Shown here one piece after another: positions 2,132 to 17,814 of a stretch of 17,814 nt of DNA. The stretch spans positions 1-17,814 of IMG/VR virus record IMGVR_UViG_3300045988_010373. The stretch is one strand, 5' to 3'. The translations under genes and the position numbers were made by a program. The notes below the pieces were generated by a model. That model saw only the letters and a program-made list of their open reading frames with translations, made no database searches and was not told the DNA's origin. Every line of letters starts with the position of its first letter. Position 1 is the stretch's first letter. The stretch is from a virus.

Positions 2132-3076
2132 GTGGCAAAACGCAAAAACAACCGACGCGCCAACAATCTGAAACGCAACGCCGCAATCAGGTCAGCGCAG
2201 GTACGCCAAGAGCGGGCCGTAAGGGATTACAGTACCGGACGCCTCCCCAAGCAAATCACTGAAGCATTCCTAGGGAAACTCAGTGCCCAACAGCTTGAGC
2301 AGGTTGCGCGACGTATCGGGCAGGAATTCGGGGAGCAGCAGCAAGCCTTACGTGCGCGGGATAATGAACCGTATCAGGTTGTCCCCGACGTGCATATTAC
2401 GAAACTCGATAGGGAACTGGCGGCGCGCCCGCTGATAACCGACGTGGAAATCGCCGCCGCCCCGTCGAAACGCCGGAAAACATTACGGCAGCAGCAGCGC
2501 CGCCGACTTGAGGCGCGGCGGAAAATCAAACGCGCCCAACAATTCGAGGCGCTGAGTATGGCCCGCTATACCGTGGGGGAGATCCGCGAAATGGAACTTG
2601 CGGGAGAATCCCCATTCGACGTGCTGGGTACGCATACGGTTGGCGGGTCGGCGCGCGATGAACTCACACGCAACCGCGCGAACATATTCGGCACCGAACG
2701 TGGTATAAGCCATGCGCGTGCGATGATTCGAGGCGGCAACCGCAGGCGACTTGAGCGGGAGATATTGGAATACGCCGGGCTTGTAGGCCGCGCGCCATTA
2801 CGCGCGGGAACTCGGCAAATTCCCGAGAGTGAGGGGACTGCGGATTTTGATAGGGTCGAACAACAGCTAGAAGCATTCGACTCAAGTATCGCACAAAAAT
2901 TCGCGTCCCTATCAAACCGTCAAAAAAGATGGTTGATGAACAATACGAATTTTAGCACCGTGGTACGCGAAGCAACATGGTATAATGACAAGACGCATAA
3001 ATGGGAGACCAAAGCGGACGCGGGAGATGTGGCAACGCGAATCGATGAATGGATGACCAGCGCAGCACGACACTAA
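2132..3076 (+). CDS. Candidate terminal protein (TP), 314 aa
   Basis: GTG 2132 lies after the strong SD AAGGAGGGG. The gene is immediately upstream of the pPolB gene with a 12-nt gap, as in phi29 (gene 3 then gene 2). The N-terminus is very basic (MAKRKNNRRANNLKRNAAIR, compare phi29 TP MARSPRIRIK...). There are Arg-rich helical segments. The size is close to known TPs. No motif-level proof. Confidence 0.55.
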   Translation: MAKRKNNRRANNLKRNAAIRSAQVRQERAVRDYSTGRLPKQITEAFLGKLSAQQLEQVARRIGQEFGEQQQALRARDNEPYQVVPDVHITKLDRELAARPLITDVEIAAAPSKRRKTLRQQQRRRLEARRKIKRAQQFEALSMARYTVGEIREMELAGESPFDVLGTHTVGGSARDELTRNRANIFGTERGISHARAMIRGGNRRRLEREILEYAGLVGRAPLRAGTRQIPESEGTADFDRVEQQLEAFDSSIAQKFASLSNRQKRWLMNNTNFSTVVREATWYNDKTHKWETKADAGDVATRIDEWMTSAARH

Positions 3077-3088
3077 AAGGATGGAATC

Positions 3089-4549
3089 ATGAAAGAGCGT
3101 CGAACGGCGGCAACAGACGGCGCAACACTATTAACGGATGACGGCATGGAACCATTGACAGCCCGTGCCGTCATCCGCCTCACCATGCTCGACCATCATA
3201 CGCGCGTATGGTGTGCGCACGGATGGCAGGACATTAAACCCATAGCCGCCGAACTCTTGAAACGACTACCATTGCAATCGAACCCGAGCAAGGACGGCGC
3301 GTGGGGCACGTTCAATATTCGCGGCCATTTTTACAGTTTTCGTGTGCGCATGGGCGGCATTACCGTGGACTTTATCGACGTGCGCAATATTACGCGCGAC
3401 GATGGGTTGCATGTTTCACGTGAAACGTTCGGAGGAACCACCGACTTGGAAACCACCTGGAACATCGCGCAGGAATGCGACGCCCTGAACCTCAAGGGCA
3501 CCACCATAGCGTCAATGGCGATGACCGACTATATCGGCGGTGACTACGCTGGGTTCAAACGCCATTTTCCGCCATTGGATAGGGATGATTATCATCGGAT
3601 GCGCCCCGCCTACTATGGGGCGATAGTGTACAGCAAGCCGGGCGAATACCGGGATTGTAGAAGCTGGGATGTGAACAGTCTCTATCCGAGCATCATGCGC
3701 GACGCTCCAATGCCAACAGGCTCCCCCATATGGTACGACGGGGAATATCAATACGACGCCGACTATCCATTGCATATCGACGTTGTCGCGTTTGATGCAA
3801 AATTGAAGAACGGCAAAACGGCAACGCTCACCAATATCCTACCCGTATGGGGGTATGAGGGTGAACGCTTGGATAGCACGCTCGGCGTCATCACCATGCC
3901 GGTCACGGATGTGGATTGGGAAACGCTCACGGAAAACTATGACGTGCATGTGTGGGAGCATATTGGCGGCTGGAAATTCCGCAAATCACATGGACTCTAC
4001 TATAACTACGTGGATACATGGTTCCACGTGAAACAAACCGCAACCGGAGAGCGTAAGCAGATGGCAAAACTACTATTGAACTCATTGGTGGGGAAGTTTG
4101 GTGCCTCGCTCTACCGGCCCATGCTGCATCCGAAACCAACTGCGGACGGGGGTATAGATTTTACCGTGGATAAACCCGAGTCGGCCAACAGTCTGGCGTG
4201 GCTGCCGACCGCCGCCTATGTGAACGCTTATGGTCGGCAGGTATCATCCCGTGCGATGAACGCGAACACCGACCGCGTGATATATGCGGATACTGACGGC
4301 ATGATATTGGCTGGGCTGGACGCGCCTACGGGCGTCGAAACGGATGACCGGAAACTGGGTGCATGGAAAAACGACCACACCTATGAAAAATTACGCATTC
4401 TCGGCAATCGTAAATATTGCGGTGTGGAAACAGGCGGCGACACCATTATGCGGTTGAGCGGCGTGCATCGCGCCGCCCCCATCCCTTATGACGAGTTTCT
4501 GTCGGGGTCGCATCATCTCAATGACGATGGCCATAGTTTCATGCTATAA
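3089..4549 (+). CDS. Protein-primed family B DNA polymerase (phi29 gp2-like), compact 486 aa
   Basis: By-eye alignment to phi29 DNAP. WDVNSLYPS matches motif A (3668-3691). The DYPLHI block is present. KLLLNSLVGKFG matches motif B (4067-4102). YADTDG matches motif C (4283-4300). KLGAWKNDH...RKY matches the KxY region. ExoII-like NPSKDGAW is present. Confidence 0.95.
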   Translation: MKERRTAATDGATLLTDDGMEPLTARAVIRLTMLDHHTRVWCAHGWQDIKPIAAELLKRLPLQSNPSKDGAWGTFNIRGHFYSFRVRMGGITVDFIDVRNITRDDGLHVSRETFGGTTDLETTWNIAQECDALNLKGTTIASMAMTDYIGGDYAGFKRHFPPLDRDDYHRMRPAYYGAIVYSKPGEYRDCRSWDVNSLYPSIMRDAPMPTGSPIWYDGEYQYDADYPLHIDVVAFDAKLKNGKTATLTNILPVWGYEGERLDSTLGVITMPVTDVDWETLTENYDVHVWEHIGGWKFRKSHGLYYNYVDTWFHVKQTATGERKQMAKLLLNSLVGKFGASLYRPMLHPKPTADGGIDFTVDKPESANSLAWLPTAAYVNAYGRQVSSRAMNANTDRVIYADTDGMILAGLDAPTGVETDDRKLGAWKNDHTYEKLRILGNRKYCGVETGGDTIMRLSGVHRAAPIPYDEFLSGSHHLNDDGHSFML

Positions 4550-5097: not shown

Positions 5098-6825
5098 ATG
5101 CCGACTACCCCCGTGGTGACGCCGAAGCAGCAGCTTCGCCCGCTCACTGAATTCAATAACGCCCAGATCCTGAACATAATTCGTAACGAGGCGTCCCCAG
5201 AGTACCAGCGGCGTATGCCCTCCGCCACTCAGATGAACATGGATAGGCAGATGGCCACGCTCATGTCGAGTACTCAGCTGAAGAACGAGTTTTACTCGGC
5301 GCTGGTCAATCGCATCGGCGGCACCTACGTCAACACGTGGAGGTGGAACAACCCGCTTGGTATTTTCCAGCGCGCCTCCCAGACGTTTGGCGACACGTGG
5401 CAGGAAATCGCCGTGGGTATGCCCCTCGCGCAGGTGTATGACCCGAACGCGGAATATTTGGGCGCGGACAACTTCCGCAAGTGGAAAATCGACGTGGATA
5501 GCCTCTATCATCGTTTGGACTTCGCCCACTGGTATCCGGCCACCACGGATGACAAGACGCTCCAGCGCGCGTTTACCTCTGAAACCGGTCTGGCCTCGCT
5601 GACTTCGCAGATTCTTACCTCGTGCTATAATGCGGCTGAAGTGGACTTGTTCGAGGCCATGTGTCACCAGTTTGTCGAGTATGCGAAGCTGGGCGGCTAT
5701 TGGCGCGTGCATATGGACGCTGACCTGAATGACATGGGGTCTACGGAGACGGACGCGCGTGACATGCTGCGACAGATTCGCGCGTGGGCCGATACGCTGA
5801 AATTCGTGTCCACTCGGTATAATGCGCGGCACATGCCGACGTTTGCCAAGCCGGATGAACTCGTATTGTTCTGCTCGCCTGAAGTTAAGTCGGCGCTTGA
5901 TGTGCAGGGTCTGGCCACGGTATTCCAGCGTACCGACGCCGAACCGACCATCGACCGGATTATCGTTATTCCGCAAGACCGGTTCGGCATGGATGGTGTG
6001 CAGGCCATTCTGACCACCGATAAATTCCTCATTGATATTCCGGTCATCAATGAGATGACCCAGCAGCCCAACCCGGTCAACATCAACTCGGTTAACCACT
6101 TCCTGCATGTGCAGCACATCATCTCGGTAAGCGGCTTCGCTCCCGCAGTGATGTTCTGGACAGGAGCAGGATCCACCGCCAACGTGGTGGCCCCGACCGG
6201 CACGACCGCCCAAAAACCGACATTCCAGCTTAAGCTGGCAATGTATGGTGGCGGCACGTCCACCCCGTCGAATGTGGCGCGTGGCGGCGCGGTGCAGGTC
6301 ACCGCCGATACGACCATCACCAATAACGGTACGGCCACATTCCGGTCGGACGCGGTAAGCTACACCATCGGTGACACGGTGAAGCCCAAGAGCGATTACA
6401 CCTACATCTCCCCGACCGGCGTGCTGGTGGTCGGTCTGGACGAGCCGAACACGGTTATTCCGGTGACGGCGGCCGCCTTGTACACCAACCCGGAGACGCC
6501 GGAGGTGCCGGGCACGGTATCCGCCGCGCTCGACGTGCCAGTGACCGGCGACGGCGTTATCGGGTTCAACCCGTCGATTATCGCGTCGATTGCCGTCAAC
6601 GTCTCGAACGTAACCACGGGCCATACGGTGCAGGCGACCGCGACGGCGACCATGATTGACGGGCGCAAGGCCGACGTGACCGCGCAGGCCGCGTGGACGT
6701 CCGGCACTCCGGCGAACGCCACGGTATCCGAGTCGGGCGTAGTGACCGGCGTCAAGGCGGGCACCTCTGACATCACGGCCACACTGTTCGGAGTGTCCGG
6801 TAAGAAGCAGGTAACCGTGTCCTAG
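5098..6825 (+). CDS. Major capsid protein (phi29 gp8-like) with C-terminal Ig-like Big_2 domain
   Basis: SD AGGAAAGGA. By-eye matches to phi29 gp8: NEFYSALVNRIG..NNPLGIFQ versus NDFITSLVDRIG..NNPLKKFK, and CYNAAEVDLFEAM versus IYNSAEVDEYEYM. The C-terminal roughly 75 aa (about 6595-6822) show a Big_2-like pattern (VQATATATMIDGRKADVTAQAAWTSG..ATVSESGVVTGVKAGTSDITATLFGVSG). Confidence 0.93.
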   Translation: MPTTPVVTPKQQLRPLTEFNNAQILNIIRNEASPEYQRRMPSATQMNMDRQMATLMSSTQLKNEFYSALVNRIGGTYVNTWRWNNPLGIFQRASQTFGDTWQEIAVGMPLAQVYDPNAEYLGADNFRKWKIDVDSLYHRLDFAHWYPATTDDKTLQRAFTSETGLASLTSQILTSCYNAAEVDLFEAMCHQFVEYAKLGGYWRVHMDADLNDMGSTETDARDMLRQIRAWADTLKFVSTRYNARHMPTFAKPDELVLFCSPEVKSALDVQGLATVFQRTDAEPTIDRIIVIPQDRFGMDGVQAILTTDKFLIDIPVINEMTQQPNPVNINSVNHFLHVQHIISVSGFAPAVMFWTGAGSTANVVAPTGTTAQKPTFQLKLAMYGGGTSTPSNVARGGAVQVTADTTITNNGTATFRSDAVSYTIGDTVKPKSDYTYISPTGVLVVGLDEPNTVIPVTAAALYTNPETPEVPGTVSAALDVPVTGDGVIGFNPSIIASIAVNVSNVTTGHTVQATATATMIDGRKADVTAQAAWTSGTPANATVSESGVVTGVKAGTSDITATLFGVSGKKQVTVS

Positions 6826-12088: not shown

Positions 12089-13537
12089 ATGTCAACCACA
12101 CAGCACACCTCTCACTACAATCTGCCGACGTTTGGCGACAACCCGAACGACCGCCCGTCGTGGCGCGGTGACTTCACCGACGCGATGACGAAAATCGATA
12201 ATCAGATGTACGCGAACGCGACCAACATCACCACGGCGACGGCGGCGGCGAACAACGCGACCGCGGCGGCAGGCGAGGCCAAGAAGGAGGCTGAGACTGC
12301 GACAAGCCTATCGCAGGCCAACAAGAACGATATTGCCGACTTGGATGGCTATTTCGGTAAGCTCGGCGTCACGTCGGAATCGACCGCGCAGCAGCTTATG
12401 AACACCATCAACGGTAAGGCGGAGGAAACCGAGCTGACCTCGCTTAAAGGCACGGTATCCTCGCTATCCAGCACAGTCAATACCAAGGCGAACACCTCCG
12501 ACGTGTATACCAAGGGTCAGGCGGACACGACGTTTACCAAGCAGGGCGGATATTCCGGTACCGCGCAGCAGTTGAACCAGCGTATTCAAGCGTTGGAAGA
12601 GGAAGCGCCGCAGGACGCATTGCCCATCTGTTTGTGCATCGGGGATAGCTACGCCAATTCCTCCAGCACCGTTGATGCGGACGGCACGGACGCGACCAAG
12701 TGGCCGACACAGCTCCGTAACATCATCGGTAACGATTATCAGGTGAAAAACTATGCCGTAACCGGGGCTGGGTTCAATGTGTCGGGAAAGACGTTCACCG
12801 ACCAGATCAACAACGCCTACAGCGCCTCGGCCATCGATAACGATAACGTGGCGATTATCATCATCGGTGGCGGGCGTAACGACGTTGCCACCACCTCCCA
12901 GATGAAGTCGTATGCAGATTCGACGTTCTCCAATGCGCGCGCGAAGTTCCCGAAGGCTCGAATCATCGCAGTGCCGATGCTCTGGCATAACGCGGGCATG
13001 GATATGTACGGCAGGCAGAAGGCCGCGGGCGTTGCGGAGGCGGCAGCCACGAACGGTGTGGAAAACGTCGATTGGGCGTGGACGTGGAACATCGGCAACG
13101 ATTCCAATTTCAGCAGCGGCGACATCCACCCCAATGCGAACGGCGCGAAGGTCATCGCGTCCTATATGGCGTCCGCCATCCGGGGCACCTACACCGGACG
13201 CTACGAGGCGGCCACCGTCACGTCATCCAACGGCCGCGTACGCAGCAACGTCGTAGCCTCGGGCGGCATGGTATTCGCCTCGCTCTGGGGCAACGATGGC
13301 ACCCAAAATTCCGACCTGGCCGCAGGCGTCACGTTCCCGGGCTGGGCTAGGATTGCTGCGGGTTCCGATCCCGACCAGTTCCGCGCATGGGGCGCAGGCT
13401 TGACCAATTCCGGTTCTACAGTGAGCGGCTGGCTGTTGACCGGTGTTGATTCGGACACGTCCGGTGCTCCAAAGATTACCTACCACGGCAGTACGGCGGG
13501 GGCCAACAATGGCTGTTTCGTGTGCTATCCGTGGTAA
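12089..13537 (+). CDS. Tail fibre/spike protein paralog 2 with SGNH (GDSL-type) hydrolase domain (482 aa)
   Basis: SD AAGGAG. The shared N-terminal anchor is MSTTQHTSHYNLPTFGDNPNDRPSWRGDFTDAMTKIDNQM. It has an Ala-rich coiled segment and a fibre motif YTKGQADTTFTKQGGY. SGNH blocks are present: CIGDSYAN (GDS at 12641-12649), IIIGGGRNDV, and GDIHPNANG (DxxH). Confidence 0.75.
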   Translation: MSTTQHTSHYNLPTFGDNPNDRPSWRGDFTDAMTKIDNQMYANATNITTATAAANNATAAAGEAKKEAETATSLSQANKNDIADLDGYFGKLGVTSESTAQQLMNTINGKAEETELTSLKGTVSSLSSTVNTKANTSDVYTKGQADTTFTKQGGYSGTAQQLNQRIQALEEEAPQDALPICLCIGDSYANSSSTVDADGTDATKWPTQLRNIIGNDYQVKNYAVTGAGFNVSGKTFTDQINNAYSASAIDNDNVAIIIIGGGRNDVATTSQMKSYADSTFSNARAKFPKARIIAVPMLWHNAGMDMYGRQKAAGVAEAAATNGVENVDWAWTWNIGNDSNFSSGDIHPNANGAKVIASYMASAIRGTYTGRYEAATVTSSNGRVRSNVVASGGMVFASLWGNDGTQNSDLAAGVTFPGWARIAAGSDPDQFRAWGAGLTNSGSTVSGWLLTGVDSDTSGAPKITYHGSTAGANNGCFVCYPW

Positions 13538-13553
13538 ACGTTTCGCTCGAGCC

Positions 13554-13583
13554 ATACCCCGTCCGGTACGCCGGGCGGGGTAT
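13554..13583 (+). terminator. Hairpin after the SGNH tail gene (13-bp stem with one G-U, loop TACG)
   Basis: ATACCCCGTCCGG (13554-13566) pairs with CCGGGCGGGGTAT (13571-13583). There is no clear U-tract. The 3' arm overlaps the TATACT box. Confidence 0.4.
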
Positions 13584-13586
13584 ACT
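13581..13586 (+). promoter_or_regulatory. -10-like hexamer TATACT, 6 nt upstream of ATG 13593 (leaderless candidate)
   Basis: TATACT, then the spacer AATATC, then ATG. No SD and no TG extension. Confidence 0.25.
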
Positions 13587-13592
13587 AATATC

Positions 13593-14807
13593 ATGGTAGA
13601 CGTACAAGCATGGTTGGAACGTACCCAAAACCAATACTGGGACATGGACGGCTCTTATGGTGCCCAGTGTTGGGATTTATGGGCAAAATACTGCATGGAT
13701 AATTACAATTTGTCGCTGGGCGATTGTATCACCCCAACGGGCTATGCGGAGGGCAATTACACCATGTTTCCCACCACGTCCGCCGTGGGGCGCGTGTTTG
13801 AAAAAAAGGACGCCAATTACACGCCCGGCATGGGCGATGTGGTGTTCTGGACGTTCGGCAGTCAAATCTACACCGGCAGCCACGTGGCCATCGTGTGGGG
13901 TGGTATCCAAGGGGATAATATCGATGTGCTGACGCAAAACCCCACGCCTGCCGTCCACCAATCGCTACCGCTAATGAAAGGTTCGCAGCTACTCGGCTAT
14001 CTGCATCCCACGGCATTGCCGGAACCGCCTGAATCCGGCGATAATCCCACCGGCGGTAATAATCCGGGCGTGAGTGTGGACGGTGATATCTCCGCGTGGA
14101 TCCAATTGCAGGGCGATAATCTCATTTACCACAGCGGCTCGGGCACAACATCATTGCAAGCCATTTTCTACAAGTCGAGCGCCCAGACGTGGGTGTATCG
14201 CGGAGGCAAAGGTCAGCCGGACGCCGACCAAGGACAGGGCACGCCAAGCGTGGGCGACGGGGAAAGCTCCTACGCGCTCTACGTCATCGGCACCGTTGAA
14301 TCATCATTACGCTGGGATGCCGTCGAGCCAAACAATCAGGGTATCGGCATCGCGCAATGGAGTTTCGGACGCCGCTTGCAAGTGCTGAACGCGATGAAAG
14401 CGGTTGACGCCGCCGGATATGAGGCGTTTGCCGCCTCCGCTCCAGCTATCGCCGCGCTTATGGAATCGGGCGGCACGTTCAATAGGGCGATGACCGGTAG
14501 CGAGGTTGCCGCATTCCAGGCGTGGGCGCGGCGCACGGAGTCACGTCAGGGGCAGCGTAATCAGTTCGCCACGGATTACGAGGGCTACCCGCAGACGTAT
14601 GATGATGCAAAAATGCAGATACTGTGGACGTGCGCCTATCATCAGAGCCCGGCAGGCGCAATGAACGTGCTGCACGCTTCATCGCTTACCCAACTGTATA
14701 ATAATATCCTCAACACATCCCCGTTCGGGCCATACGGGACGCGCTACAATACCGCCTATTCATTGTTGAACGTGTGGGACGGCATCAGTGCGCCGCCGAA
14801 CTTTTAG
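13593..14807 (+). CDS. Virion-associated peptidoglycan hydrolase: N-terminal CHAP peptidase plus C-terminal lytic transglycosylase-like domain (404 aa)
   Basis: CHAP signature: YGAQCWDLW (Cys codon 13668-13670) and TGSHVAIVW (His codon 13881-13883). Linker: PEPPESGDNPTGGNNPG. The C-terminal part has the SLT-like pattern VESSLRWDAV...GIGIAQWS. It occupies the position of phi29 gp13. The ORF-track start 13443 overlaps the previous gene and the hairpin, so it is rejected. Confidence 0.8.
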   Translation: MVDVQAWLERTQNQYWDMDGSYGAQCWDLWAKYCMDNYNLSLGDCITPTGYAEGNYTMFPTTSAVGRVFEKKDANYTPGMGDVVFWTFGSQIYTGSHVAIVWGGIQGDNIDVLTQNPTPAVHQSLPLMKGSQLLGYLHPTALPEPPESGDNPTGGNNPGVSVDGDISAWIQLQGDNLIYHSGSGTTSLQAIFYKSSAQTWVYRGGKGQPDADQGQGTPSVGDGESSYALYVIGTVESSLRWDAVEPNNQGIGIAQWSFGRRLQVLNAMKAVDAAGYEAFAASAPAIAALMESGGTFNRAMTGSEVAAFQAWARRTESRQGQRNQFATDYEGYPQTYDDAKMQILWTCAYHQSPAGAMNVLHASSLTQLYNNILNTSPFGPYGTRYNTAYSLLNVWDGISAPPNF

Positions 14808-15975: not shown

Positions 15976-16341
15976 ATGCCAATCCATGAATTAATCGTCG
16001 TTGGCATCGTATTTTTATTGGTGCTAATCGACTATGTTACCGGCGTGGTTAATGCGATTATGCACGGTGAACTATCCAGCGAGAGAATGCGGCAGGGGCT
16101 CGGGCACAAGTTCGCATATCTGGCGGTAATCTGCGTGGCACTAATCGTAGAGTACGGTTCGGATTACATCGACTTGGGAATCGAACTACCCGTATTCATC
16201 CCCGTGTGCGTGGGCATCTGCCTGATTGAGATTACCTCAATCATGGAAAATTGCGTAAAAATCAACCCCGAACTATCCGGCTCGAATATCCTGAATATTT
16301 TCAACATTAATAGAAAAGAAAACAATGGTAAAGAAGATTAA
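15976..16341 (+). CDS. Holin (phage_holin_4 / LL-H-type pattern), 121 aa
   Basis: SD GAGGAAA. There are three hydrophobic segments. The motif LIDYVTGVVNAIMHGELSSERMRQGLGHKF and the C-terminal IEITSIMENCVKINP fit the D..TG...A....SS....G..K ... E..SI.EN pattern of that holin family. It lies directly upstream of, and overlaps, the endolysin. AT-richer than the genome average. Confidence 0.8.
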   Translation: MPIHELIVVGIVFLLVLIDYVTGVVNAIMHGELSSERMRQGLGHKFAYLAVICVALIVEYGSDYIDLGIELPVFIPVCVGICLIEITSIMENCVKINPELSGSNILNIFNINRKENNGKED

Positions 16342-17377
16342 GGCAATCGCCTATAGTGTGATTGCGGCAATCGCCGCCCTACTGCTGGCATTTTCGCCAA
16401 CCGCTAGCGCGGCAGACATGATAGACGTATCCAGTTGGCAAACCGGCATCAACGTCACCACGTCCGGCGCGCAGATTGTGGTCTCCAAGGCAACCGAGGG
16501 CATTGGATACGTCAACCCGGATTGCGACCGCGTAGTGCAGGACGCCTTAGCGGCGGGACAGGGTGTAGGCGTCTACCACTTCGCCCACACCGAAAACAAC
16601 GCGCTGAGCGAAGCCAATTACTTTATCGACAACACGCGCGGCTACATCGGCAAAGGTATCGTGCCTATTCTGGACTGGGAGCCGTCCGCTCCTTGGGATA
16701 CCGGTTGGGCACTCACATGGCTCCGCACAGTAGAAGCCGCATGGGGCACCAAGCCTATCATTTATATGAATCAGTCCACGGAAAATTCCTACGACTGGAC
16801 GGCGGTAGTCGCCAGGAATTATGGGCTATGGATTGCCGCATACACCTTGGGTTACACGCCAATCTACGGGTTCAACCCGCCCGCAGCGCAACCCACGTTG
16901 CATCATTGGCCGTTTGCGGTCGCATGGCAATACACCTCGACCGGCTACGTTGGCGACTGGGGTGGCGCGCTCGACTTGAGCGTGGTCTATGGTGACCTGA
17001 ATACATGGTATGCGTATGCAGGTAGCGGACAGGTTGCCCCCGCACCCGCGCCCGCGCCAGCACCGCAGCCCAGCACGCCGGACACCACGTGCGACACCAA
17101 TTGCGTGGTCATCCAGTCTGGCCAGTACGTTTCAATGTTCTGGGCTGACTGGTGGAACGTCAGCGTGCCCAGCGGCAACCCGTCCGTAGTGTACCCCGGT
17201 GACAAGGTATGCCACAATGGCGGCGGTGCCGTTGCAACATCGCGGACATATGTGGTGCAGGCGGGCGACACATTGAGCGGCATCGCCGCTTGGCTCGGAG
17301 TCAGCATGTATGATATCACAGGATATTCCTCGGGTAATATGAATCTCATTTATCCCGGAGAAGTCTTGCACTACTGA
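16325..17377 (+). CDS. Endolysin: N-terminal Sec-type signal peptide, GH25 muramidase domain, Pro-Ala linker, C-terminal LysM
   Basis: MVKKIKAIAYSVIAAIAALLLAFSPTASA/AD has a basic n-region, a hydrophobic core and an AxA site. GH25 pattern: IDVSSWQ..INV, VVSKATEG.GYVNP, GVYHFA. Linker: APAPAPAPAPQP. LysM: YVVQAGDTLSGIAAWLGVSMYDITGYSSGNMNLIYPGEVL (about 17243-17374). The start overlaps the holin 3' end by 17 nt. Confidence 0.88.
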   Translation: MVKKIKAIAYSVIAAIAALLLAFSPTASAADMIDVSSWQTGINVTTSGAQIVVSKATEGIGYVNPDCDRVVQDALAAGQGVGVYHFAHTENNALSEANYFIDNTRGYIGKGIVPILDWEPSAPWDTGWALTWLRTVEAAWGTKPIIYMNQSTENSYDWTAVVARNYGLWIAAYTLGYTPIYGFNPPAAQPTLHHWPFAVAWQYTSTGYVGDWGGALDLSVVYGDLNTWYAYAGSGQVAPAPAPAPAPQPSTPDTTCDTNCVVIQSGQYVSMFWADWWNVSVPSGNPSVVYPGDKVCHNGGGAVATSRTYVVQAGDTLSGIAAWLGVSMYDITGYSSGNMNLIYPGEVLHY

Positions 17378-17614: not shown

Positions 17615-17670
17615 GAAGACACTTCGCGTACCCCTGAAACTCGAATTACAATATTCATCTCAACCACCAT
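17575..17670 (-). CDS. Right-end ITR-proximal short ORF (31 aa, MVVEMNIVIRVSG...), possibly the 5' part of a split gene
   Basis: ATG 17670 lies after SD GGAAAGGA, the mirror image of the SD/ATG of the left-end gene at 146. The first five codons, MVVEM, compare with MVVDM at the left end. Stop TAA is at 17577-17575. Confidence 0.35.
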   Translation of the reverse strand: MVVEMNIVIRVSGVREVSSCYHVKMGNVSLG

Positions 17671-17698
17671 CCTTTCCATAACCTTGGTTGATACCTAC

Positions 17699-17707
17699 AT
17701 ACTACCA
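17699..17707 (-). promoter_or_regulatory. Mirror-image candidate extended -10 promoter inside ITR-R, reading inward
   Basis: Same TGGTAGTAT on the minus strand by ITR symmetry, upstream of SD GGAAAGGA and the minus-strand ATG at 17670. Confidence 0.35.
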
Positions 17708-17747
17708 CACCACCACCACAACACGCCGAACAACACAAAACAGTGAG

Positions 17748-17792
17748 AAAACTACGCGCTTAAAAAATCGACAAAACTACGCGCTTAAAAAA
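17748..17792 (-). repeat. Mirror copies of the two 20-bp direct repeats inside ITR-R
   Basis: Follows from the perfect ITR identity (17748-17767 and 17773-17792). Confidence 0.95.
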
Positions 17793-17814
17793 CGACACAA
17801 AACAACACGCCGGA

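Follow-up and report, generated by a model that had tools for sequence, protein, structure and literature searches.

Phi29-type polymerases are the textbook single-subunit replicases, uniting priming, processivity, strand displacement and proofreading in one protein. Here we analyse a compact, 486-residue member of the protein-primed family B DNA polymerases (pPolBs), encoded at positions 3089–4549 (+) of the IMG/VR virus record IMGVR_UViG_3300045988_010373. The 17,814 nt of this record, hereafter the window, represent a complete linear phi29-like phage genome. Judged from its sequence, the 3'-5' exonuclease site of this polymerase is degenerate.

The protein resembles phi29 DNA polymerase (DNAP; gp2; PDB 1XHX, 2PYJ) in being a pPolB with TPR1 and TPR2, the catalytic residues of motifs A and C and the KxY motif (TM-score 0.84), and the two genomes share inverted terminal repeats (ITRs), a phi29-type single-stranded DNA-binding protein (SSB) and a gene located where phi29 encodes its terminal protein. 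It differs in being 89 residues shorter overall, with an exonuclease domain reduced by about 50 residues, a shortened thumb and palm hairpin after KxY, and Val at the position of Tyr390. It has no equivalent of Glu14, Asn62, Lys143 or Tyr165. In phi29 DNAP, Tyr165 and, in an auxiliary role, Lys143 complete an exonuclease site whose carboxylates are Asp12, Glu14, Asp66 and Asp169 (PMC4974454).

Among cultured phages, the polymerases of BadAztec1, BD811P1-3 and BP1 (469–481 residues, 34–36% identity) belong to the same compact clade and share with our protein the deletions, the degenerate exonuclease positions, a non-Tyr motif B and syntenic genomes of ~18 kb. Their sites have lost more than that of our protein, with no equivalent of Asp66 or Asp169, and in BadAztec1 no ExoI could be aligned. 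They are annotated simply as 'DNA polymerase', and our literature searches gave no comment on their exonuclease site.

The closest precedents are the pPolBs of mavirus and the polinton-like viruses, in which the exonuclease domain is likewise reduced or lost and a lower fidelity has been proposed (PMC11161782). These are eukaryotic viruses, however, and their loss of the greater part of the domain goes along with the acquisition of a helicase (S3H or fused S1H; PMC11161782). The phage enzyme, in contrast, retains the fold under strong selection, and a helicase was not detected in its genome. Retention of an exonuclease fold with replaced catalytic residues is also seen in the family B enzyme Pol zeta (PMC7544198) and in the phage polymerase divPolA1 (PMC11348598). 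Those enzymes are RNA/DNA-primed or belong to family A, and either function alongside further subunits or are not the only replicase, unlike the present protein, which is the only polymerase of a minimal genome. The engineered exonuclease-minus phi29 DNAP (D12A/D66A) is similarly a phi29-type enzyme without part of its catalytic set, although the phage protein keeps D10 and D48, exactly the Asp pair removed in that mutant, and is without the Glu, Asn, Lys and Tyr.

Identification of a compact protein-primed polymerase

The open reading frame (ORF) begins with an ATG at 3089, preceded by AAGGA, and upstream extension is impossible because an in-frame stop lies at 3074–3076, the end of the preceding ORF. 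The product matches Pfam PF03175 (DNA_pol_B_2) with 117.9 bits (cut-off 25.8, E 7e-34) and PHROG 1907 with E 2e-53. In a pairwise comparison, residues 155–443 align with residues 206–500 of phi29 DNAP (E 9.5e-45), as expected from an earlier note on this DNA, which had described a clean alignment of the polymerase half. Residue 155 thus corresponds to phi29 residue 206, which makes the N-terminal part 51 residues shorter than that of phi29, matching the estimate of about 50 given in the same note.

An AlphaFold2 (AF2) model, built on a 75-sequence alignment and used for secondary-structure order and superposition, reached a mean pLDDT of 92.9 and a pTM of 0.89, with N-terminal 10-residue blocks at 84–96. 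Whole-chain Foldseek superposition on phi29 DNAP structures gave TM-scores of 0.79–0.84, 2pyj being the one at 0.84, and the best match among predicted viral structures was the BadAztec1 polymerase (0.87–0.90).

Motif register of the N-terminal domain

The N-terminal 154 residues alone gave only noise in phmmer and Pfam searches (TetR, E ~0.6) and no Pfam family. Since this part stays unaligned in single-sequence searches, the exonuclease motifs can only be placed by profile methods. We distinguish a compact family, comprising relatives of 454–496 residues, from a phi29-like family of 546–672 residues. The register was established by full hhalign, by N-terminal hhalign of 26 compact sequences against 118 intact ones in local, low-MAC (maximum accuracy) and global modes, by a 165-sequence MAFFT L-INS-i alignment, by a full-length alignment and by the order of secondary-structure elements in the AF2 model (E4-9, E13-16, E19-22, H25-32, E37-42, H46-59 ... 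H119-132).

The N-terminal hhalign comparison with the exonuclease domains of the 118 intact pPolBs gave probabilities of 98.8–99.2%. Residues 1–139 (3089–3505, +) thus form a compact domain of exonuclease fold that corresponds to phi29 residues 1–189 in about 50 fewer residues. All alignments agree on D48 as Asp66, D119 as Asp169 and a deletion covering Lys143 and Tyr165, and every alignment that covers the N-terminus pairs D10 with Asp12 and A12 with Glu14. Further pairs are T13 with Thr15, W41 with Tyr59, H44 with His61, G45 with Asn62, D97 with Asp121 and T139 with Thr189.

The ExoI remnant T9-D10-G11-A12-T13 (3113–3127, +) faces phi29 C11-D12-F13-E14-T15, so that Asp and Thr are kept and the catalytic Glu has become Ala. 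In the AF2 model, D10 directly follows the strand 4–9, and residues 13–22 form a mini-hairpin; the β2–β3 hairpin (about phi29 residues 16–42) has been trimmed to ~10 residues. The ExoII remnant W41-C-A-H44-G45-W46-Q47-D48 (3209–3232, +) corresponds to Y59-F-H61-N62-L-K-F65-D66 and lies in the model at the end of strand 37–42 and the start of helix 46–59. Here Asp66 is kept, Phe65 is lost and Asn62 is replaced by Gly; MAFFT pairs H44 with Asn62 where hhalign pairs it with His61, and neither places an Asn at that position. The loop D97-V-R-N100 (3377–3388, +) matches D121-S-L-K124 and keeps the equivalent of the non-catalytic Asp121.

The ExoIII remnant F114-G-G-T-T-D119-L-E121 (3428–3451, +) contains D119, the equivalent of Asp169, at which the ExoIII helix begins in the model. 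Just upstream, a single deletion of ~27 residues, placed identically by hhalign and MAFFT, removes both the lysine of the Kx2hxA motif (Lys143) and the ExoIII tyrosine (Tyr165); the Lys143 equivalent is deleted in our protein and in all 26 compact-family representatives. The Y-x3-D pattern is absent, the residues five and four before D119 being F114 and G115. The sequence would also allow a two-residue register shift that may make E121 the equivalent of Asp169.

In sum, three of the four carboxylates (D10, D48 and D119) are kept and four of the seven family B exonuclease-site residues are gone: Glu14 (now Ala12), Asn62 (Gly45), and Lys143 and Tyr165 (both deleted). On this register the site looks like that of a natural Glu14-to-Ala enzyme that is also without the water-orienting Tyr and the Lys. 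Among the features that define DEDDy exonucleases, the DnaQ-like fold is present, and the ExoI D-x-E, the ExoII N-x2-3-(F/Y)-D, the ExoIII Y-x3-D and the Kx2hxA lysine are all absent. With these four defining sequence features failing, we did not classify the protein as a proofreading exonuclease.

The earlier note had likewise proposed a degenerate site, and the alignments and the model agree that the site is incomplete, although all three of its motif placements were wrong. LDHHT (residues 34–38, 3188–3202, +), taken there for ExoI, aligns with phi29 L52-K-V-Q-A56 at the junction of helix A and strand β4, and lies in the model between helix 25–32 and strand 37–42. The 'RVW' shared by the two proteins is a coincidence: that of phi29 lies in the deleted strand β2, and R39-V-W41 of our protein corresponds to D57-L-Y59. 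The catalytic Glu is indeed lost, but to Ala12 and not to His, and the ExoI Asp survives as D10. NPSKDGAW (residues 65–72, 3281–3304, +), offered as a retained ExoII, aligns at about phi29 84–91 in the loop after helix B; the model has coil at residues 60–69 and strand at 70–75, and the segment is conserved in close relatives only. TTWNIAQEC (residues 122–130), proposed as ExoIII, does lie inside the ExoIII helix, and the Tyr is lost as stated, but the segment sits 3–5 residues downstream of the catalytic position, where the Asp is kept (D119).

The profile alignments and structure model that the note had called for converge on one register across hhalign, MAFFT and AF2. Neither the alignments nor the model revealed an intact D-x-E or Y-x3-D elsewhere in the N-terminal domain. 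Two stretches of relatives that lie opposite CAHGW of our protein, 'CFDYE' (P0095) and 'AIDAE' (P0098), were considered as ExoI and rejected, the strand being β4 (ExoII) by hhalign and the model.

It is thus very improbable that an intact DxE, NxxFD and Yx3D set has been overlooked through an alignment artefact, or that the gene is decaying in a defective element. The register does rest on profile methods where single-sequence searches fail over the first 154 residues, and a D119-L-E121 tripeptide does exist, but three independent alignment approaches and the model agree, and the tripeptide stands at the start of the ExoIII helix rather than at the end of strand β1, with no Tyr or His 3–5 residues before it. 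The stop at 3074–3076 leaves no room for a longer ORF, and a dN/dS of 0.08, an ORF intact in 78–84 relatives, complete ITRs and the existence of cultured relatives exclude a pseudogene.

Distribution of the degenerate exonuclease site

Searched exhaustively with HMMER, 1.84 billion cluster representatives yielded 10,129 pPolB-like proteins. A motif census was made of the best 150 of these 10,129 plus earlier matches, giving 171 representatives. All seven exonuclease residues are present in 118 of the 171, and each of the 26 clusters (50% identity) of the compact family, of 454–496 residues, has at most two of the seven. Neighbour-joining on the polymerase domain grouped the 26 compact representatives in a single clade; the deeper branches of the tree are very short, too short to place the forms of intermediate length described below.

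The compact degenerate type occurs in the cultured Bifidobacterium phages BD811P2, BP1 and BadAztec1, and one polymerase with 89% identity to ours is labelled as coming from a Bifidobacterium breve metagenome-assembled genome. All exonuclease motifs are intact in cultured phi29-like phages of Clostridium, Hungatella, Eggerthella, Microbacterium and Curtobacterium. Because BD811P2, BP1 and BadAztec1 propagate in culture, the enzyme must be a working replicase. The question of whether relatives share the substitutions, also raised in the earlier note, can thus be answered: the degenerate state is clade-wide, cultured Bifidobacterium phages included, and is not a peculiarity of one gene.

Relatives were found only at the protein level, a megablast of the polymerase gene against the phage collection giving no match. 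Our literature searches returned no report of exonuclease-degenerate pPolBs in phi29-like tailed phages.

A further set of ~15 metagenomic clusters of intermediate length (516–553 residues; P0136, P0145, P0164, P0166, P0199, P0210, P0213, P0214, P0225, P0231, P0233, P0241, P0242, P0247 and P0252) keeps the β2–β3 hairpin, with degenerate positions in ExoI, ExoII and ExoIII alike. Decay of the exonuclease in phi29-like polymerases accordingly reaches beyond the compact clade, and may have been stepwise or recurrent.

Conservation and selection in the N-terminal domain

The ratio dN/dS across 78 IMG/VR genomes was 0.084 for codons 1–154 and 0.076 for codons 155–486. The N-terminal domain is not decaying: purifying selection acts on it as strongly as on the polymerase domain. 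No variation was seen among 84 close relatives at D10, G11, H44, G45, W46, D48, D97, N100, G115, G116, D119 and T139. These relatives mostly keep T13, the Thr15 equivalent, and have A, V, T or S, never an acidic residue, at position 12.

The picture differs across the 26 compact representatives. The N-terminal residues invariant at this depth are non-catalytic (P61, Y82, N100, T139 and A144), and the catalytic positions vary, with D10 present in 18 of 26, D48 in 8, D119 in 6 and an acidic residue at position 12 in 4. In phi29, the Asp121-Lys125 and Gln183-Thr189 loops couple the exonuclease and polymerase domains (PMC6351526), and the narrow template tunnel responsible for strand displacement has the exonuclease domain as one of its walls (PMC4974454). 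The ExoII residues Tyr59, His61 and Phe69 are described as essential for the interaction with the terminal protein (Eisenbrandt 2002, as cited in PMC1635332). The conserved residues therefore map to parts of phi29 DNAP that have other jobs, which supports retention of the domain for non-catalytic roles. Strand displacement and terminal-protein interaction had been suggested as such roles in the earlier note, a suggestion that fits the purifying selection and the conserved non-catalytic residues.

Two further observations concern the same set of genomes. Codons 1–23 of the polymerase gene (3089–3157) showed a synonymous divergence of 0.27 across the 78 genomes, against 0.63–0.83 in the rest, with a dN/dS of 0.29, which suggests that the 5' end of the gene is under nucleotide-level constraint. 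The viral contig collection holds at least 111 related genomes (IMG/VR loci L011–L090), mostly from dataset 3300045988, with a polymerase dS of ~0.8 and a nucleotide identity of ~85%; high microdiversity of this kind is by itself no indication of a high mutation rate.

Motifs of the polymerase domain

Motif A (D194-V-N-S-L-Y199-P, 3668–3688, +) is intact, with the metal ligand and the steric-gate Tyr, and is invariant in relatives. Both catalytic Asp residues of motif C (Y399-A-D401-T-D403-G404, 4283–4300, +) are present. The alignment equates D194/Y199, D401/D403 and R441-K442-Y443 with phi29 D249/Y254, D456/D458 and K498-T-Y500, and TPR1 and TPR2 are covered by unbroken alignment across phi29 residues 261–358 and 395–426. 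The reading of motif C as DTDG in the earlier note was correct; Gly and Ser vary in the family, and DTDG versus DTDS is uninformative because close family members carry either.

Motif B (K327-LLL-N331-S-L-V334-G-K, 4067–4096, +) has Val in place of a near-universal Tyr, phi29 Tyr390, just as the earlier note had read it (NSLV334GKF). K327, N331, S332 and G335 are kept, and only the Tyr position differs; Val334 is a motif variant and no ground for exclusion from the pPolB family. The position is Val in 81 of 84 close relatives. Tyr is found there in none of the 26 compact-family representatives, compared with 109 of the 118 exonuclease-intact pPolBs. As the sequences are related, this coincidence of motif B Tyr loss with exonuclease loss is an association and not a test. 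With the aromatic ring removed (Y390S), phi29 DNAP discriminates less well at insertion and no longer discriminates against dA opposite 8-oxo-dG (PMC1976434); in the light of this effect, Val334 is plausibly relevant to fidelity.

Two side observations belong to this domain. Residues 441–486 (4409–4549) cover a thumb and a post-KxY palm hairpin ~30 residues shorter than in phi29, where the thumb helps to coordinate synthesis and degradation (PMC1475753); the shortening may accompany the loss of proofreading. In the divergent compact relatives P0094, P0099, P0100, P0121–P0125, P0132 and P0139, motif C reads N-T-D-G, with Asn for the first Asp, in polymerases that otherwise look intact.

Proofreading and replication fidelity

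Taken together, these data make it likely that the protein replicates the genome of a Bifidobacterium podophage of the phi29 type, that its intrinsic 3'-5' proofreading is slight or absent, and that its N-terminal domain has been kept as a scaffold. Several proofreading residues are lost, and the DNA is therefore probably copied without error correction. Protein identity, motif register, missing residues, selection on the domain and clade-wide distribution are observed; loss of exonuclease activity, the scaffold role and any effect on mutation rate are inferred.

Such an enzyme would carry out terminal-protein-primed, processive and strand-displacing synthesis of the 17.8-kb linear genome. Its N-terminal domain, a trimmed DnaQ-like fold, would be retained as a structural part of the enzyme, forming the wall of a narrow downstream-template tunnel that gives strand displacement of the phi29 type and carrying the Asp121/Thr189 loop contacts (D97 and T139) to the polymerase domain. 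W41 and H44 would be the ExoII residues that phi29 uses for terminal-protein binding. Fidelity would then come from nucleotide selection alone, in an active site that is also without the motif B tyrosine (Val334).

Three points weigh against this explanation. D10, D48 and D119, together with His44, are strictly conserved in the subclade of our protein down to ~47% identity, which exceeds what a purely structural remnant would call for and makes a residual or altered metal-dependent activity possible. Small early ORFs of the genome, without detectable homology, could hide a trans-acting nuclease. The alignment on which the AF2 model was built contained phi29-like sequences, so that the model is biased towards the phi29 fold.

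The main rival is a residual or non-canonical nuclease, that is, a working but weakened or altered exonuclease with a site made of D10, D48, D119 (or E121) and His44, by which proofreading would be reduced rather than abolished. D10, H44, D48 and D119 are invariant in the 84 close relatives and kept in the subclade P0083 and P0089–P0094, T13 is mostly kept and its phi29 equivalent, Thr15, is a ligand of single-stranded DNA, and the N-terminal domain is under strong purifying selection. Nonetheless, we regard such an activity as unlikely. Single substitutions at the catalytic carboxylates of phi29 DNAP cut exonuclease activity by orders of magnitude. Four members of the catalytic set (PMC4974454) have no counterpart in our protein: the Glu of ExoI, the Asn of ExoII, the Kx2hxA Lys and the Tyr of ExoIII. 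Moreover, D48 and D119 are so rarely kept in the compact family as a whole (8 and 6 of its 26 representatives) that the D10/D48/D119 site is not what the family has in common.

Less probable still is proofreading in trans, by a host 3'-5' exonuclease or an early phage protein, which would leave fidelity little affected. Room for such a protein exists in the early ORFs at 77–496, 547–1215 and 1227–1547, which belong to no recognisable family in Pfam and PHROGs. However, searches of Pfam and PHROGs gave no exonuclease match for any other ORF of the window even at a threshold of E≤10, proofreading in phi29 is intramolecular (PMC4974454), and a primer end enclosed in the polymerase ring would not be expected to be accessible to an external nuclease.

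Loss of intrinsic proofreading with a retained scaffold thus remains our preferred explanation, and the observation made in the earlier note is partly confirmed and its interpretation partly supported. We extend it only tentatively, and with more doubt than confidence, to the clade: gut Bifidobacterium podophages, cultured isolates included, might all replicate with a natural proofreading-less pPolB that is also without the fidelity-linked motif B tyrosine, with mutation rates at least 10 times those of phi29-like phages whose exonuclease is intact. Their polymerase would then be processive, strand-displacing and naturally exonuclease-minus, at a size 15% below that of phi29 DNAP.

With the fold kept and catalytic residues dropped, these enzymes offer a natural experiment that separates the structural roles of the exonuclease domain (template tunnel and terminal-protein contact) from catalysis. 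If the activity is truly lost, abundant gut phages would be unusually error-prone double-stranded DNA viruses, which bears on their evolvability and microdiversity. Engineered phi29 exonuclease-minus mutants lose some strand displacement. A compact, naturally exonuclease-minus, strand-displacing polymerase could serve in amplification, nanopore sequencing and the incorporation of modified nucleotides. The cultured relatives BD811P1-3, BP1 and BadAztec1 make the proposed loss of proofreading directly testable.

Genome organization and other features

The genome ends in ITRs of 133 nt (1–133 and 17682–17814) that are 98% complementary, the mark of a complete linear protein-primed genome. A weaker extension reaches ~166 nt (1–166 and 17650–17814). 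Inside the repeat, a unit of ~25 nt, TTTTTTAAGCGCGTAGTTTT..., occurs twice, at 23–53 and 48–78; it may act as a repeated origin or as a binding site for protein.

The genes are arranged as follows: phi29-type SSB, a 314-residue ORF without annotation, DNA polymerase, major head protein, tail protein, connector, collar, encapsidation ATPase, holin and endolysin. By PHROG and Pfam matches, the genome thus carries the gene set of a phi29-like podophage of ~18 kb (SSB, pPolB, major head, tail, upper collar connector, lower collar and encapsidation ATPase), and it is syntenic with that of Bifidobacterium phage BD811P2. The SSB gene (1575–2012, +) matches Pfam PF17427 (Phi29_Phage_SSB, E 1.5e-15) and PHROG 6243. 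No helicase was detected by Pfam and PHROGs among the other ORFs of the window.

The ORF directly upstream of the polymerase gene (2132–3076, +) is, by synteny, a candidate terminal protein gene. It gave no match in Pfam and PHROG searches, shares 31% identity with the equivalent ORF of BD811P2, and lies where phi29 has gene 3 and where phages Curie and Prophecy have annotated terminal proteins.

Several genes outside the replication region carry additional domains. A 482-residue ORF in the tail and lysis region (12089–13537, +) contains a GDSL/SGNH hydrolase domain (Pfam PF13472, E 4e-12) and may encode a receptor- or cell-wall-modifying esterase. Endolysin-type domains are found in two separate genes, at 13443–14807 (+) and 16325–17377 (+), the first of which probably encodes a cell-wall hydrolase associated with the tail. 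An Ig-like extension is present at the C-terminus of the major head protein (5098–6825).

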